Origin: Escherichia coli | Lineage (GTDB): Bacteria; Pseudomonadota; Gammaproteobacteria; Enterobacterales; Enterobacteriaceae | DNA length: 64,000 bases | Strand: one strand, 5' to 3' | Assembly: GCF_029227855.1 (NCBI RefSeq) | Contig: NZ_CP074356.1 | Notes under the pieces: generated by a model | Database searches by the model: none | What the model saw: only the letters and a program-made list of their open reading frames with translations | Told to the model about the DNA's origin: nothing | Shown here: piece after piece, positions 9,537 through 19,273 of the stretch | How positions within the stretch are numbered: the stretch's first letter is position 1 | Layout of the letters: each line of letters begins with the position of its first letter | Position numbers and translations under genes: made by a program

Positions 9537-10248
9537 TGTGCACAGAAAACCCCCAGCTAGGCTGGGGGTTCCGGAAAGCTTTCAGCTTTGAGCCTGTTAT
9601 TAAAACCCCTTTTGATTTGTTAAAACACCTTGCGGTCTGGCAACTGCAAGTGTCAAACAAGAAATCAAAAGGGGGTCCCAATGGGGAACGAAAAGAGCTT
9701 AGCGCACACCCGATGGAACTGTAAATATCACATAGTTTTTGCGCCAAAATACCGAAGACAGGTGTTCTACAGAGAGAAGCGTAGAGCAATAGGCAGTATT
9801 TTGAGAAAGCTGTGTGAGTGGAAAAGCGTACGGATTCTGGAAGCTGAATGCTGTGCAGATCATATCCATATGCTTGTGGAGATCCCGCCTAAAATGAGCG
9901 TATCCGGGTTTATGGGATATCTGAAAGGGAAAAGCAGTCTGATGCTTTACGAGCAGTTTGGTGATTTGAAATTCAAATACAGGAACAGGGAGTTCTGGTG
10001 CAGAGGGTACTACGTCGATACAGTGGGTAAGAACACGGCGAAGATACAGGATTACACAAAGCACCAGCTTGAAGAGGATAAAATGGGAGAGCAGTTATCG
10101 ATTCCCTATCCGGGCAGCCCGTTTACGGGCCGTAAGTAACGAAGTTGGATGCAAATGTCAGATCGTGTGCGCCTGTTAGGGCGCGGCTGGTAAGAGAGCC
10201 TTATAGGCGCATTTGAAAAACCTCCGGCTATGCCGGAGGATATTTATT
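9537..10248 (+). mobile_element. IS200 copy 1 (IS200/IS605 family), ~712 bp, boundaries approximate (+/- 5 bp)
   Basis: Boundaries set by where the sequence stops matching the reverse complement of copy 2 (48334..49046). Contains a left-end hairpin CCCCCAGC-TAG-GCTGGGGG, a 152-aa tnpA, and a right-end hairpin CCTCCGGC-TAT-GCCGGAGG. No terminal inverted repeats, as expected for this family. Confidence 0.85.
9681..10139 (+). CDS. tnpA: IS200 transposase TnpA (HUH Y1 transposase), 152 aa
   Basis: ORF 9630..10139; start taken at ATG 9681 (MGNEKSLAHTRWNCKYHIVFAPKYRRQVFY...HIHMLVEIPPK), the IS200 TnpA signature. Confidence 0.9.
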   Translation: MGNEKSLAHTRWNCKYHIVFAPKYRRQVFYREKRRAIGSILRKLCEWKSVRILEAECCADHIHMLVEIPPKMSVSGFMGYLKGKSSLMLYEQFGDLKFKYRNREFWCRGYYVDTVGKNTAKIQDYTKHQLEEDKMGEQLSIPYPGSPFTGRK

Positions 10249-10710: not shown

Positions 10711-10852
10711 TCCCATCTGCACAAGCGATAACTCGCTTTGCCCAGAGGATGCACTCGCATCCTCTTTTCGCTCAAATATCAACCAGATTTATCATTTTGC
10801 TCTTAAGCGCAGCATTCTAATCTGAACTGGTTATTCATCTGCGGAACCTCAT

Positions 10853-10942
10853 ATGAGCGAAGCTCTCGGTATCACTGCATTTTATATATTCATAGCCGCG
10901 ATTATTGTTGCTGCAGTGCTATACCTTGAACAACGCTGGTAG
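10853..10942 (+). CDS. Candidate small hydrophobic protein, 29 aa (MSEALGITAFYIFIAAIIVAAVLYLEQRW), hypothetical
   Basis: Short ATG-to-TAG ORF read from the raw sequence in the 355-bp rnk-uspG spacer; one predicted transmembrane helix; weak Shine-Dalgarno. Below the ORF-track size cutoff. Confidence 0.2.
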   Translation: MSEALGITAFYIFIAAIIVAAVLYLEQRW

Positions 10943-11065
10943 CGCCTGGTTTTATTTATTTTCCAGCTCAATAGCAAATTCAGATCAAATCAGCCTCGCA
11001 AATCATAGATTCATAACCAATAATGTGCTGTTATGTATACATGCAAAAACAAGGAGAGAATGCTT

Positions 11066-15240: not shown

Positions 15241-16143
15241 ATGGCCAATCTCTACGACTTGAAAAAGTTCGACTTAAATCTTCTTGTCATATTTGAGTGT
15301 ATTTATCAGCATTTAAGCATTAGCAAGGCTGCTGAATCACTATATATCACCCCGTCAGCCGTGAGCCAGTCGTTACAACGCTTACGTGCGCAATTTAATG
15401 ACCCTTTATTCATTCGCTCAGGAAAAGGTATCGCGCCGACGACGACAGGGTTAAATCTGCATCACCATCTTGAGAAAAACCTCAGAGGCCTTGAACAAAC
15501 AATTAATATAGTCAATAAGTCCGAACTAAAGAAAAACTTTATTATCTACGGCCCTCAGCTCATTTCTTGCTCTAATAATAGTATGCTGATCCGCTGCCTA
15601 CGGCAAGATGCCTCTGTCGAGATTGAGTGCCATGATATCCTCATGTCAGCAGAGAATGCTGAAGAACTGTTGGTTCACCGCAAAGCCGATCTGGTGATCA
15701 CCCAAATGCCAGTGATCAGCCGTTCCGTCATTTGCATGCCATTGCATACAATTCGCAATACTCTAATTTGTAGTAATAAGCATCCGCGAATTACTGACAA
15801 TAGCACTTATGAACAAATTATGACAGAAGAGTTCACCCAATTAATATCCAAATCAGCAGGAGTTGATGATATTCAAATGGAAATAGACGAGAAGTTTATG
15901 AATCGCAAAATTTCATTTCGTGGTTCCTCTTTGCTGACAATCATTAATAGCATTGCAGTTACAGATTTACTGGGAATAGTCCCCTATGAACTTTATAACT
16001 CCCACCGTGACTTTCTTAATTTAAAAGAGATAAAACTAGAACATCCGTTACCTTCAATAAAGCTTTACATTTCCTATAATAAATCTTCTTTAAATAATTT
16101 GGTGTTCTCCCGATTTATTGATCGTCTAAATGAGAGTTTTTGA
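15241..16143 (+). CDS. ybdO: LysR-family transcriptional regulator YbdO, 300 aa
   Basis: ORF track 15241..16143; N-terminal helix-turn-helix (LSISKAAESLYITPSAVSQSLQRLR); synteny between dsbG and ybdN. Confidence 0.88.
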   Translation: MANLYDLKKFDLNLLVIFECIYQHLSISKAAESLYITPSAVSQSLQRLRAQFNDPLFIRSGKGIAPTTTGLNLHHHLEKNLRGLEQTINIVNKSELKKNFIIYGPQLISCSNNSMLIRCLRQDASVEIECHDILMSAENAEELLVHRKADLVITQMPVISRSVICMPLHTIRNTLICSNKHPRITDNSTYEQIMTEEFTQLISKSAGVDDIQMEIDEKFMNRKISFRGSSLLTIINSIAVTDLLGIVPYELYNSHRDFLNLKEIKLEHPLPSIKLYISYNKSSLNNLVFSRFIDRLNESF

Positions 16144-16289
16144 TATATAACCTCAGACAGCTATTATAACTTTCACCTATTTATTCACAGCACGAATGAA
16201 AAATAAAACACTCTGCTTTTCAGTGTTTACTTTATAATTAACAGTCTTATCTCACTGATCACCCCGTAACGTTCAGAGAGCGTTTTCAG

Positions 16290-17510
16290 ATGTCTATTTA
16301 TAAAATCCCGCTTCCACTGAATATTCTGGAAGCTGCAAAAGAACGTATTACCTGGACACTTAACACCCTACCCCGTGTCTGCGTTTCTTTTTCGGGTGGT
16401 AAAGATTCCGGATTAATGCTGCATCTGACCGCCGAACTTGCCCGACAAATGGGCAAAAAAATTTGTGTTTTATTTATCGACTGGGAAGCTCAGTTCTCTT
16501 GCACCATTAACTATGTTCAGTCCCTGCGCGAGTTGTACACCGATGTCATCGAAGAGTTTTACTGGGTTGCGCTCCCGCTTACAACGCAAAATTCCCTATC
16601 ACAATACCAACCCGAATGGCAGTGCTGGGAACCTGATGTCGAATGGGTACGTCAGCCCCCGCAAGATGCGATAACCGATCCTGACTTTTTCTCCTTTTAC
16701 CAGCCTGGCATGACCTTCGAACAATTTGTGCGTGAGTTTGCCGAATGGTTTTCGCAAAAACGTCCGGCGGCGATGATGATCGGCATCCGTGCGGATGAGT
16801 CCTACAACCGTTTTGTCGCCATCGCCAGTTTAAATAAACAACGTTTTGCCGATGATAAGCCCTGGACTACTGCCGCACCAGGCGGTCATAGCTGGTACAT
16901 ATACCCCATCTACGACTGGAAAGTCGCTGATATCTGGACCTGGTATGCTAGCCATCAACGCCTCTGTAACCCACTGTATAATATAATGTATCAGGCAGGC
17001 GTTCCTCTACGTCATATGCGAATTTGCGAACCTTTTGGTCCGGAACAACGGCAAGGATTATGGCTCTATCACGTTATCGAACCGGATCGCTGGGCTGCTA
17101 TGTGCGCACGAGTCAGCGGGGTAAAAAGTGGCGGCATTTACGCCGGACATGACAACCATTTTTATGGTCATCGGAAAATCCTCAAGCCCGAACATTTAGA
17201 CTGGCAGGAGTATGCATTATTGCTACTCAACAGCATGCCGGAGAAAACAGCTGAGCATTATCGCAATAAAATCGCCATTTATTTGCACTGGTATCAGAAA
17301 AAAGGCATCGAGGTTCCACAAACCCAGCAAGGGGACATTGGCGCGAAAGATATCCCCTCCTGGCGGCGAATATGCAAAGTTTTACTCAATAACGATTACT
17401 GGTGTCGGGCATTATCATTTAGCCCGACCAAAGCGAAGAACTATCAGCGTTATAACGAACGAATAAAAGGAAAACGTCAGGAATGGGGGATACTATGCAA
17501 CAACGATTAA
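16290..17510 (+). CDS. ybdN: PAPS-reductase-like (adenine-nucleotide alpha-hydrolase) protein YbdN, 406 aa
   Basis: ORF track 16290..17510; SFSGGKDS P-loop-like motif near the N-terminus; synteny. Confidence 0.88.
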   Translation: MSIYKIPLPLNILEAAKERITWTLNTLPRVCVSFSGGKDSGLMLHLTAELARQMGKKICVLFIDWEAQFSCTINYVQSLRELYTDVIEEFYWVALPLTTQNSLSQYQPEWQCWEPDVEWVRQPPQDAITDPDFFSFYQPGMTFEQFVREFAEWFSQKRPAAMMIGIRADESYNRFVAIASLNKQRFADDKPWTTAAPGGHSWYIYPIYDWKVADIWTWYASHQRLCNPLYNIMYQAGVPLRHMRICEPFGPEQRQGLWLYHVIEPDRWAAMCARVSGVKSGGIYAGHDNHFYGHRKILKPEHLDWQEYALLLLNSMPEKTAEHYRNKIAIYLHWYQKKGIEVPQTQQGDIGAKDIPSWRRICKVLLNNDYWCRALSFSPTKAKNYQRYNERIKGKRQEWGILCNND

Positions 17511-18112
17511 CGCAGGATTTAACCCAATTTCTCGCCAGCTTGCCGGAAGACGATCGCATCAAAGCGATTAATGAAATCCGCATGGCGATCCATCAGGTTA
17601 GCCCCTTTCGAGAAGAGCCAGTGGATTGCGTTCTGTGGGTTAAAAACAGCCAACTTATGCCTAATGATTACAACCCAAACAACGTGGCACCACCCGAAAA
17701 AAAACTGCTGAAAAAATCCATTGAAATAGATGGTTTTACCCAACCCATTGTGGTCACGCATACGGATAAAAATGCCCTGGAAATCGTGGATGGTTTTCAC
17801 CGCCATGAAATTGGTAAAGGCTCATCATCGTTAAAATTACGCTTAAAAGGTTATTTGCCGGTGACCTGTCTGGAAGGTACGCGTAATCAACGCATCGCCG
17901 CGACTATTCGTCATAATCGCGCCCGTGGACGTCACCAAATCACTGCCATGTCAGAAATCGTCCGTGAACTCAGCCAGTTGGGATGGGACGATCATAAAAT
18001 CGGCAAAGAGCTGGGAATGGACAGCGACGAAGTGCTACGCCTGAAGCAAATTAACGGCCTGCAAGAGTTGTTTGCCGACCGTCAATATTCCCGCGCCTGG
18101 ACGGTTAAATAG
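17483..18112 (+). CDS. ybdM: ParB/Srx-like nuclease-domain protein YbdM, 209 aa
   Basis: ORF track 17483..18112; overlaps the ybdN 3' end by 28 nt; ParB-like motif region (IVDGFHRH). Confidence 0.85.
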   Translation: MGDTMQQRLTQDLTQFLASLPEDDRIKAINEIRMAIHQVSPFREEPVDCVLWVKNSQLMPNDYNPNNVAPPEKKLLKKSIEIDGFTQPIVVTHTDKNALEIVDGFHRHEIGKGSSSLKLRLKGYLPVTCLEGTRNQRIAATIRHNRARGRHQITAMSEIVRELSQLGWDDHKIGKELGMDSDEVLRLKQINGLQELFADRQYSRAWTVK

Positions 18113-19273
18113 CTAAAGCTGGCGCAGGCGTTCAGCTGCTGCCAGCAACGTCGATTCCTTCTTGGCAAAACAGAGACGAATCAGTTTATGTGGGAAGGGA
18201 TCGGCGCAAAACACCGATAGCGGAATCGCCGCTACGCCGTGCTCCTGCGTCAGCCACTGGCAAAACTCAACGTCATCCAGCGTAGACACGGCGCTGTAAT
18301 CCACCAGCAAAAAGTATGTACCTTCGCACGGTAAAATCTCCAGCCGACTCTCACTTAAGGCATTCACCAGAATATCGCGTTTCTGGCGATAAAAGTCCGG
18401 TAACGCAAGATAATGCTCAGGTTCTGCACGTAGCATATCCGCAAGTGCCAGCTGTGCCGGGGTATTCACCGAAAAGGTCAGATACTGATGTACCTTGCGA
18501 ATTTCGGCACTGATGGGCGCTGGCGCAACGCAATAACCCACTTTCCAGCCGGTCATATGATAGGTCTTGCCAAACGATGACACCGCCACCGCCCGCTCAC
18601 GCAGCTGCGGATGCGCCAGCACGCTGGCATGGCCCTGTTGTGAAAAGTTGATGTGCTCGTAAACTTCATCGCTAATGACAAAAATCTCGTGCCCGGCAAT
18701 TGCCTGCCACAAAGCGGCGAAATCAGCCTGCTGCCAGACAGTTGCACTGGGGTTATGCGGGGTGTTGAGGATCACCAGTCGGGTGCGCTCGCTTAACAAT
18801 GCGGCAAATTCCTGCCAGTCCACGCGAAAATGCGGTGGTTGCAGTGCAATACGTTTCACTATTCCCCCCGAAAGCGCGATGGCGGGCGCGTAACTGTCAT
18901 AGCTGGGATCAAAGCAGATCACTTCATCACCATTGCGCACCAATGCGGTAATCGCTGCATATAACGCTTCCGTCGCCCCTGCCGTTACGGTGATATCACT
19001 ATCGGCATCCGGTTGATAGCCATACAGACGTTCCGTTTTCTGAGCAATCGCCTCGCGCAAGGCCTGCACGCCAGTCATAGGCGCGTATTGGTTTGCCCCC
19101 TGGTCAACATGGTACGCCAGCCGCTCCTGCAAATAGCGCGGACCATCAAAATCAGGAAAGCCTTGCGACAGGTTAATCGCCTGGTGTTGCTGCGCCAGCG
19201 CGCTCATCTGGGTGAAAATAGTGGTGCCAAGTTGTGGAAGTTTGCTTTGTGGAATCAGAGGGTTATTTGTCAT
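18113..19273 (-). CDS. ybdL: Methionine-oxo-acid aminotransferase YbdL (PLP-dependent), 386 aa
   Basis: ORF track 18113..19273, MTNNPLIPQSKLPQLGTTIFTQMSALAQQ...SSFGKTYHMTGWKVGY (PLP lysine motif). Confidence 0.9.
   Translation of the reverse strand: MTNNPLIPQSKLPQLGTTIFTQMSALAQQHQAINLSQGFPDFDGPRYLQERLAYHVDQGANQYAPMTGVQALREAIAQKTERLYGYQPDADSDITVTAGATEALYAAITALVRNGDEVICFDPSYDSYAPAIALSGGIVKRIALQPPHFRVDWQEFAALLSERTRLVILNTPHNPSATVWQQADFAALWQAIAGHEIFVISDEVYEHINFSQQGHASVLAHPQLRERAVAVSSFGKTYHMTGWKVGYCVAPAPISAEIRKVHQYLTFSVNTPAQLALADMLRAEPEHYLALPDFYRQKRDILVNALSESRLEILPCEGTYFLLVDYSAVSTLDDVEFCQWLTQEHGVAAIPLSVFCADPFPHKLIRLCFAKKESTLLAAAERLRQL

Follow-up and report, generated by a model that had tools for sequence, protein, structure and literature searches.

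The ybdN–ybdM pair of Escherichia coli, a chromosomally fixed copy of the IbrA/IbrB module with a possible role in DNA modification

The overlapping genes ybdN and ybdM, which follow the LysR-type regulator gene citR (formerly ybdO) in a 64,000-nt stretch of Escherichia coli DNA (contig NZ_CP074356.1, assembly GCF_029227855.1; hereafter the window), are a chromosomally fixed enterobacterial copy of the IbrA/IbrB module. We tentatively read this pair as a ParB-assisted, ATP-dependent, sulfur-free DNA-modifying module that is silent in E. coli via CitR, an interpretation that we regard as possible, if short of probable. The genes, their domain labels, the relationship to IbrAB and the repressor are already on record, and the locus itself is not a discovery; our analysis adds the near-obligate pairing of the two genes across phyla, a recurrent triad with an SNF2-family helicase, the cysteine-less active site of YbdN, the non-CTPase boxes and invariant helix-turn-helix (HTH) of YbdM, and the scale of the spread on mobile elements. 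Its interest lies in the role of a PP-loop/ParB pair that is both widespread and strongly conserved.

Family membership and protein architecture

A preliminary description of the window, made from its sequence, had pointed to a resemblance with IbrA/IbrB, and our comparison bears this out. Compared with the annotated proteins of Escherichia phage PhiR5_2, YbdN is 56.6% identical to IbrA (99% of the length aligned) and YbdM 57% identical to IbrB; RefSeq names the ybdM product 'IbrB-like domain-containing protein'. In both modules a gene encoding PAPS_reduct and DUF3440 domains is followed by an overlapping gene for a ParB-like protein, and both match the same PHROGs (2302, at 1e-76, and 15645 for YbdN; 2159 for YbdM). 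Judged by architecture, adjacency and similarity alike, ybdNM is a member of the IbrAB family. The two differ in their setting: ybdNM has a fixed place in the core genome, in conserved synteny and under a LysR repressor of its own, whereas ibrAB is accessory and resides on islands, prophages and plasmids.

The labels given to the proteins in that description, a 3'-phosphoadenosine-5'-phosphosulfate (PAPS) reductase-like enzyme and a ParB/sulfiredoxin (Srx)-like protein, are upheld by both profile and fold. YbdN matches PAPS_reduct (PF01507, residues 30–234, E 1e-14) and DUF3440 (PF11922, residues 237–344, E 3e-32), both above cut-off, and its AlphaFold2 model, built from 50 homologues, has a pLDDT (predicted local distance difference test) of 91. 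Its nearest solved relatives by fold and profile are the adenylyltransferases CysD and flavin adenine dinucleotide (FAD) synthase and the adenosine-5'-phosphosulfate (APS)/PAPS reductases, with CysD the closest by sequence profile (E 1.6e-10). Profile searches of solved structures returned only CysD, FAD synthase and Noc/ParB, and a single-sequence search of the PDB with both proteins gave at best weak matches to Noc and FAD synthase. For the all-helical DUF3440 domain no solved analogue emerged from the fold search, in which significant matches were confined to the N-terminal catalytic domain. Among YbdN homologues longer than 450 amino acids no informative fusion was seen: they held only PAPS_reduct plus DUF3440, together with apparent gene-call artefacts such as an ABC_tran fragment.

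An alignment of 50 diverse YbdN homologues places D64, E66, S171, D214 and Y230 among the invariant columns alongside G37, K38 and S40 of an intact PP-loop of canonical sequence (SGGKDS), and the protein carries a tryptophan-rich insertion (W110, W113, W119). No cysteine is found among the invariant or at least 90%-conserved columns of this alignment, and the scores of YbdN against the CysH, CysD and DndC equivalogs lie far below their cut-offs (18–34 bits against 154–413); because of these two results, 'PAPS reductase' is, to judge from its sequence, a fold label only for YbdN. It instead resembles an adenylyltransferase or ATP pyrophosphatase, one that uses ATP and works without thiol or Fe-S chemistry.

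YbdM scores 24.6 bits against Pfam ParB_N, slightly below the cut-off of 26.3, and 52 of 59 members of its family match this profile. The top Foldseek matches of its AlphaFold2 model (pLDDT 86) are ParB-CDP (6sdk), Noc (7nfu), 7bm8 and KorB (8qa8), with E-values of 1.5e-7 to 1e-5 over 145–178 aligned columns that take in both the nucleotide-binding domain and the HTH, while Srx, SbnI and SerK follow lower down (E 5e-4 to 6e-3, about 90–97 columns). The ParB assignment is thereby confirmed by the modeled fold; the word 'nuclease', also attached to YbdM in the preliminary description, is a historical domain name only.

Thirty residues of YbdM are invariant in 59 homologues from many phyla, including those of three box equivalents (NxYNPN, DGFHR and RHNRARGxH) and of the HTH helix (G178, M179, E183, Q189 and G192). 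Aligned to Noc/ParB by HMMER, YbdM has NDYNPN where box I reads NRFQPR, and DGFHR where box II reads AGERR. ParB uses the Gln and Glu of these boxes for CTP hydrolysis. Since these catalytic residues are replaced in YbdM (NPN, GFHR), its sequence marks it as other than a canonical ParB CTPase. The ATP-binding xHR motif reads GCHR in sulfiredoxin, and the conserved H106-R107 of YbdM resembles it, with F105 occupying the position of the catalytic cysteine specific to Srx. YbdM has no C-terminal dimerization domain and ends about 13 residues past the HTH. The invariance of this HTH from Firmicutes phages to E. coli argues against a promoter-specific regulator.

Pairing, gene neighborhood and mobile copies

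The YbdN family has more than 7,800 members in a database clustered at 90% identity and forms 218 clusters at 50% identity (E < 1e-30). Our neighborhood sample comprised 83 loci from 80 genomes and three phages, spanning Pseudomonadota, Bacteroidota, Bacillota, Verrucomicrobiota, Actinomycetota and one Heimdallarchaeota metagenome-assembled genome (MAG). A YbdM homologue adjoins the YbdN homologue in 79 of these loci, and 77 of the 79 pairs keep the N-then-M order on the same strand; 54 of the 77 codirectional pairs overlap and a further 17 are separated by 17 nt or less (71/77). Pairing is therefore near-obligate across phyla, and a triad recurs in which an SNF2-family helicase of about 415 amino acids lies directly upstream, often overlapping, as seen in 17 loci (about 20%). 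These helicases match SNF2-rel_dom, Helicase_C and phrog_62, and most of them carry Walker A and DESxxIKN motifs. They occur in both Firmicutes phage loci examined, and a third such phage has an annotated DNA helicase at this position. In Listeria sensu stricto the triad (lmo1309-1311) is a core locus (PMC5736727). The earlier suggestion that the pair recurs in nucleic-acid modification or sensing modules is thus supported by its near-obligate pairing, its frequent SNF2 neighbor and the presence of some copies in phage replication modules.

Six of the 17 linked SNF2-like proteins (L040, L046, L055, L056, L058 and L062), mostly from MAGs labeled Alphaproteobacteria, have no recognizable Walker A motif (GxGKT) while DES..IKN is kept, and may be inactive translocase variants. 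At 20 loci, mostly of Bacteroidota (L029, L039, L041, L045, L047 and others), the SNF2 gene is replaced by a gene for a conserved protein of about 140 (130–170) amino acids, a family without a Pfam or PHROG match; the small genes upstream of the helicase in the Firmicutes phages likewise had no Pfam match. No desulfurase, thioredoxin or sulfate gene was linked to the pair in the 83 loci.

The family was present in 224 phage records, mainly of Flavobacterium, Mycobacterium and Streptococcus phages, and in 789 plasmid records; these records include Klebsiella hypervirulence plasmids. Primase, recombinase and helicase genes surround the pair in Mycobacterium phage Gaia and in a Microcystis phage. 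The lytic phage FCL-2 also carries it (PMC4541368), and its function is for this reason not prophage-specific. The module comes directly after the lysis cassette in phages of Lactobacillus, Streptococcus and Clostridium, a position usual for prophage accessory or defense genes. Two loci (Gaia gp104, L087 6290–7189; L044 1125–2225) encode an IbrB homologue that carries an ectoine-synthase-like cupin domain at its N-terminus, a fusion that may point to further chemistry on the product.

Of the 5426 E. coli genomes, 1930 contain a second, accessory ibrAB copy whose proteins are about 57% identical to YbdN and YbdM. This copy or a close relative was found on an island of sequence type 131 (ST131), on an IncF plasmid with a fimbrial operon on one side and a PerC regulator on the other, and on the Klebsiella IncFIB plasmid pSWHvKp beside iroBCDN. 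Iron-uptake genes neighbor several copies: iroBCDN and fecIA on pSWHvKp (L091 8989–10850), a TonB-dependent receptor gene in ST131 (L086 8956–10808) and, about 5 kb from the core ybdNM, the ent/fep cluster.

The E. coli locus and its regulation

Of 5426 complete E. coli genomes, 5420 have the pair and 5399 have 80% or more of its length, in agreement with its earlier description as conserved core DNA, and the gene order dsbG-citR-ybdN-ybdM-ybdL is kept in Citrobacter, Enterobacter, Kluyvera, Pseudocitrobacter and Superficieibacter; Salmonella and Klebsiella orthologues are 73–84% identical. With dN/dS (nonsynonymous to synonymous substitution) ratios against K-12 of 0.023 for ybdN and 0.060 for ybdM, and of 0.07 for ybdM against Citrobacter, both are evidently real genes under strong purifying selection.

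The sizes of the two open reading frames (ORFs), the SFSGGKDS motif (YbdN residues 33–40, nt 16386–16409), the 28-nt overlap and the placement after a LysR gene had all been given in the preliminary description and are matched by the coordinates (Table 1); ybdN begins 146 nt downstream of citR, whose product matches the NCBIfam equivalog CitR with 465 bits against a cut-off of 400. The overlap indicates translational coupling. An ATG at 17495, in the ybdM frame and preceded by GGGGGA, has a Shine-Dalgarno-like site better placed than that of the annotated start at 17483; the true start is uncertain on this sequence evidence and the overlap is accordingly 28 or 16 nt. Downstream, the stops of ybdM and ybdL abut with zero intergenic bases (TAG/CTA, 18110–18115), and a promoter and terminator scan showed no terminator-like site on the + strand 3' of ybdM. 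Both genes form a convergent excludon in an E. coli RNA-seq list (PMC12288877), and transcriptional interference of ybdL with ybdM is likely.

Table 1. Positions of features at the ybdNM locus, numbered along the window
Feature	Position	Strand	Basis or remarks
citR (ybdO), LysR-type repressor of the ybdNM operon, 300 aa	15241..16143	+	CitR equivalog; published ChIP-exo peak
Sigma-70-like promoter candidate for ybdNM, TTGATA-16-TATTAT, 10/12	16140..16167	+	Consensus scan only
Inverted repeat, imperfect (arms of 18 nt with 78% complementarity; core ACACT-N9-AGTGT), putative operator or weak hairpin	16195..16239	.	Conserved in K-12, not in other genera
ybdN, putative IbrA-type PP-loop ATP pyrophosphatase or adenylyltransferase, 406 aa; catalytic domain 30-234, DUF3440 helical domain 237-406	16290..17510	+	
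PP-loop codons S35-G-G-K-D-S40	16392..16409	+	G37, K38 and S40 invariant (50-sequence alignment)
ybdN-ybdM 28-nt overlap	17483..17510	+	ORF coordinates
ybdM, IbrB-type ParB/Srx-like, 209 aa: N-terminal helical hairpin, NTP-binding-type domain, C-terminal HTH	17483..18112	+	ORF, profile, AlphaFold2 model
D103-G-F-H-R107, counterpart of ParB box II (GERR)	17789..17803	+	D103, G104 and R107 invariant; H106 at least 90%
C-terminal HTH-like region, helices 153-196, invariant motif LGMDxDExLRLKQ	17939..18070	+	Model secondary structure; aligned to ParB/Noc/KorB DNA-binding domain
ybdL, convergent neighbor outside the module	18113..19273	-	ORF list

The preliminary description had taken the proteins for those of K-12, a source that the comparison with strain MC4100 contradicts: the pair is 95.2% identical at the nucleotide level over 2 kb and the surrounding 25 kb (tested from 4841 to 29857) about 97–99%, with flanking genes at 96–100% identity to K-12, while the pair is 100% identical to that of the clinical strain JNEC-KY178. 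The synonymous divergence of ybdN from K-12 (dS 0.30) is about three times that of most neighbors (0.08–0.20), with amino-acid changes numbering only six, and the pair is present at 99% identity or more in only 277 of 5420 genomes; together these values suggest that the core locus exists as divergent allele classes or lies in a recombination tract. The neighbors of the pair in the window are dsbG, citR, ybdL and hcxA. Elsewhere in the window, about 710 bp between rna and rnk (9537–10248) are absent from K-12 and hold a 169-aa ORF (9630–10139) whose motifs, judged by eye, resemble those of an IS200/IS605-type Y1 transposase. Between rnk and uspG, this strain lacks about 1.6 kb of K-12 sequence with the genes yldA and ybdR and has about 280 bp instead (10771–11048).

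The region between citR and ybdN is AT-rich (32–35% GC). A scan for promoters found four promoter-like sites against 7.5 in shuffled controls, and for that reason the site at 16140 is only a candidate. The inverted repeat is conserved in K-12 and not in other genera. No operator or parS-like element conserved across genera was detected upstream of ybdN, where the region is not alignable between genera and so permits no conclusion.

Chromatin immunoprecipitation with exonuclease digestion (ChIP-exo) has shown that CitR binds upstream of citR-ybdNM, and CitR represses ybdNM (PMC9068703). In a citR deletion of E. coli BW25113, ybdN was the most induced gene (+5.5 log2, about 45-fold) and ybdM rose by 2.5 log2, while about 85 genes besides ybdN changed and the cit genes, the cys regulon and the flagellar regulon increased (PMC9068703). 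The CysB regulon (cysDNC, cysH, cysJI, cysAUW, tcyP) was up by 2–3.2 log2 with no reported CitR site (PMC9068703, Table 1), and at none of the other differentially expressed genes did the study detect a CitR ChIP-exo peak. The cys induction on ybdN derepression could be a coincidence or a metabolic consequence of YbdN activity, and the transcriptome as a whole would fit a downstream action of YbdNM on the genome. In addition, citR is reported to be regulated by H-NS.

YbdM, termed 'completely uncharacterized' in 2022, was 29-fold more abundant as a protein in cells with plasmid pUUH239.2; deletion of ybdM raised the cost of this plasmid, and over-expression of YbdM cost about 10% of growth rate (PMC8764527). 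In a Keio screen, the ybdM knockout was scored resistant to lacritin peptide (PMC12147183). The earlier statement that the K-12 proteins have no assigned function holds as far as biochemistry is concerned, no such assignment for YbdN/YbdM or IbrAB having been found in the literature searched, and needs qualifying by the published repression by CitR. Activation of prophage eib genes reportedly depends on IbrAB (Sandt et al. 2002). A later report, with reference to that work, names ibrB as an activator of Eib expression (PMC7649339).

Candidate functions and comparison with known systems

In the DNA-modifying interpretation that we favor, YbdM would bind DNA through its HTH and form a complex with YbdN, whose recruitment or activation would be gated by the ParB/Srx-type pocket with its non-CTPase residues. 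The PP-loop of YbdN would split ATP into AMP and pyrophosphate and the adenylyl moiety would pass to an oxyanion or a carbonyl on a target that is most probably a phosphate or base of DNA; the target would thereby be marked or be activated for substitution by a non-sulfur nucleophile. In many mobile copies the small SNF2 translocase would move this complex along DNA, and the altered DNA on phages, plasmids and islands would be protected or its transcription reprogrammed, the latter of which would account for the reported activation of prophage eib by IbrAB. In E. coli, the module would be almost silent through published CitR repression, its AT-rich promoter region and the reported H-NS control of citR, and both the transcriptome shift on ybdNM derepression and gene activation by IbrAB would be downstream consequences.

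That the pair acts on DNA is argued from family precedents, translational coupling, the invariant HTH, the SNF2 linkage and the phage replication modules; the precedents are the PAPS-reductase-like PP-loop enzymes of DNA modification, DndC, SspD and BrxP, and, among ParB-type partners of DNA-modifying enzymes, DndB, DpdB, the ParB activators of phage thymine dioxygenases and a ParB-like match to a PHROG annotated as DNA methyltransferase, phrog_498 (PMC10853773, PMC12839542, PMC13229309). That the chemistry would not be phosphorothioation is argued from the lack of a conserved cysteine and of linked sulfur-mobilizing genes. In its fullest form, IbrAB/YbdNM would be an unrecognized sulfur-free, ATP-dependent DNA-marking system in which a ParB/Srx-type loader with non-CTPase chemistry directs a PP-loop adenylyltransferase with a cysteine-less active site, a mini-SNF2 translocase assisting on mobile elements, and a new covalent DNA mark or an activated intermediate results. 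The mark would act epigenetically, protecting DNA or reprogramming horizontally acquired genes, and the core copy would be silent under CitR; this wider proposal we consider somewhat unlikely. Several points weigh against DNA modification. No such modification of E. coli or of IbrAB-carrying phages is reported in the literature searched, the pair shows no consistent linkage to a gene for a nucleophile donor (amidotransferase, desulfurase), and the sole published phenotype of the family is transcriptional activation, which requires no covalent chemistry. YbdN might instead act on RNA, on a nucleotide or on YbdM, and strain artefacts may account for the flagellar changes of the Keio citR mutant. 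Furthermore, the NTP-pocket residues of ParB are dispensable in a ParB-dependent dioxygenase precedent (5mYOX; PMC13229309), and a ParB partnership is for this reason no proof of NTP-driven loading. DNA modification, if true, would explain how IbrAB switches on prophage and virulence genes, and the citR deletion provides a ready switch for ybdN in E. coli by which the question is directly testable with existing strains.

The single phenotype on record, the reportedly IbrAB-dependent activation of eib (Sandt et al. 2002), would fit a transcription co-activator or anti-silencer without DNA chemistry, in which YbdM/IbrB, KorB- or ParB-like, would relieve the silencing of AT-rich horizontally acquired genes by nucleotide-gated DNA binding or spreading and YbdN/IbrA would be required as its cofactor, for example by producing, removing or transferring the nucleotide ligand or by AMPylating YbdM. 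The KorB/ParB/Noc-like fold of YbdM with its HTH, mobile enterobacterial copies beside PerC- and PapI-type regulators and virulence operons, the AT content of the citR-ybdN promoter region, the reported H-NS control and the change of about 86 genes in the citR deletion with a single confirmed CitR site are all consistent with this account. However, an HTH helix invariant across phyla is unexpected for a reader of host-specific promoters, the strict conservation of the catalytic residues of YbdN across hundreds of clusters implies that it is a working enzyme, and YbdM lacks the C-terminal dimerization domain and ParA-type partner typical of spreading ParBs; the account also leaves the SNF2 linkage unexplained and has to contend with the pair's presence in lytic phages and phage replication modules; we regard it as rather unlikely. 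A sulfonucleotide or sulfur-metabolism enzyme, in which YbdN would bind or make APS/PAPS in the manner of CysD/CysH or transfer sulfur or sulfate under regulation by YbdM, is suggested by its fold and profile neighbors (CysD, APS reductase, CysH), by a JGI annotation of the family as 'predicted PAPS sulfurtransferase' and by the CysB regulon response, which could reflect a drained sulfur intermediate (PMC9068703). This response could equally stem from medium or strain, and the sulfur hypothesis is highly improbable in view of the low equivalog scores, the want of an invariant cysteine, and with it of a thiol or Fe-S site for reduction or sulfur relay, a PP-loop of the full ATP beta/gamma-phosphate-binding type, the unlinked sulfur genes, and an obligate DNA-binding ParB-like partner and SNF2 linkage that it does not explain.

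The pair could also be a defense or exclusion effector, or a toxin-antitoxin-like pair, in which foreign DNA sensed with the help of the SNF2 protein as sensor or translocase would lead to depletion or alteration of nucleotides or to DNA nicking and so block a rival phage or plasmid. Its position just past the lysis cassette, its abundance on plasmids and islands and in accessory ibrAB copies, the TASmania flag on the Listeria pair as toxin-antitoxin-like, the response of YbdM to pUUH239.2 and the raised plasmid cost on its deletion (PMC8764527), and the proposal of ParB-superfamily proteins as nucleotide-degrading or nicking effectors (PMC10853773, PMC12839542) would fit such a role. Nevertheless, matches to PADLOC v2 defense-system models are only marginal (E 2e-5 to 8e-4; DndC 21.7, BrxP 18.4 and MTase_II 16.2 bits), no nuclease or other killing domain is consistently linked, over-expression of YbdM is tolerated at the modest cost given above, and the pair occurs inside replication modules and in lytic phages. 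Moreover, a pair that is fixed and syntenic in Enterobacteriaceae, core in Listeria sensu stricto and under purifying selection is unlike fast-turnover defense islands, and we judge a defense role decidedly unlikely.

YbdN shares the PAPS-reductase alpha/beta fold of CysH. CysH has a C-terminal catalytic cysteine in an ECGLH-type motif. YbdN was rejected as a true PAPS reductase by the lack of a conserved catalytic cysteine in the 50 homologues and by its scores against the CysH equivalogs (bits/cut-off: TIGR02057 34.1/254, PRK02090 33.3/154, TIGR00434 23.8/165). With CysD and eukaryotic FAD synthase only about 170–230 residues align; the tryptophan-rich insertion and the 170-residue DUF3440 belong to YbdN, which has no CysN-type GTPase or FMN (flavin mononucleotide)-binding module.

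YbdM-YbdN resembles DndB-DndC in combining a ParB-superfamily protein with a PAPS-reductase-family PP-loop enzyme, there acting on DNA (PMC10853773, PMC12839542), whereas the DUF3440 C-terminus is specific to the YbdN family when compared with DndC, SspD and BrxP. Membership in the DndC family was rejected on score (TIGR03183, 21.7 against 290.4 bits) and for want of a conserved cysteine dyad or Fe-S ligands; DndA/IscS, DndD and DndE are neither among the recurrent families of the 83 loci nor among the window neighbors, and phosphorothioation by YbdNM appears very unlikely. An Ssp or type-4 BREX system was likewise rejected: the BrxP match (E 1e-4) covers residues 29–102 only, and DUF4007, BrxC, PglZ and BrxL are absent from the window neighborhood and the 83 loci.

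The CTPase clamps ParB, Noc and KorB have in common with YbdM the fold of the N-domain and HTH, and the box I and II positions align. They differ in box residues (QPR to NPN in box I and GERR to GFHR in box II, invariant in the YbdM family), in the C-terminal dimerization domain, which YbdM lacks, and in the partner, which is an enzyme rather than ParA or KorA. Membership in the ParABS/Noc/KorB group was rejected on these three differences, and no ParA-like neighbor was seen in the window or the 83 loci. The Srx-like core fold of the Srx/SbnI/SerK branch is also present in YbdM.

The arrangement of YbdNM is shared by systems in which a ParB-type protein assists an adjoining DNA modifier. In 7-deazaguanine modification, found on phages and islands, DpdA requires its small ParB-type partner DpdB (PMC12839542, PMC10164549), and the ATPase activity of DpdB is needed for DpdA-mediated base exchange (PMC12839542). 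Membership in the Dpd system was rejected, neither a TGT (tRNA-guanine transglycosylase)-like DpdA nor DpdC lying beside the pair in the window or the related loci. The 5mYOX phage thymine dioxygenases are ParB-dependent and encoded beside a ParB-type partner (PMC13229309); the ParBs associated with them keep the C-terminal dimerization domain and have no obvious DNA-binding domain, whereas YbdM has an HTH. The enzyme partner likewise differs, being a PP-loop protein in YbdNM as opposed to a TGT-like transglycosylase in Dpd and an Fe/2-oxoglutarate dioxygenase in 5mYOX. If YbdNM does modify DNA, it would bring a new chemistry to the ParB-assisted modifications now represented by Dnd, Dpd and 5mYOX.

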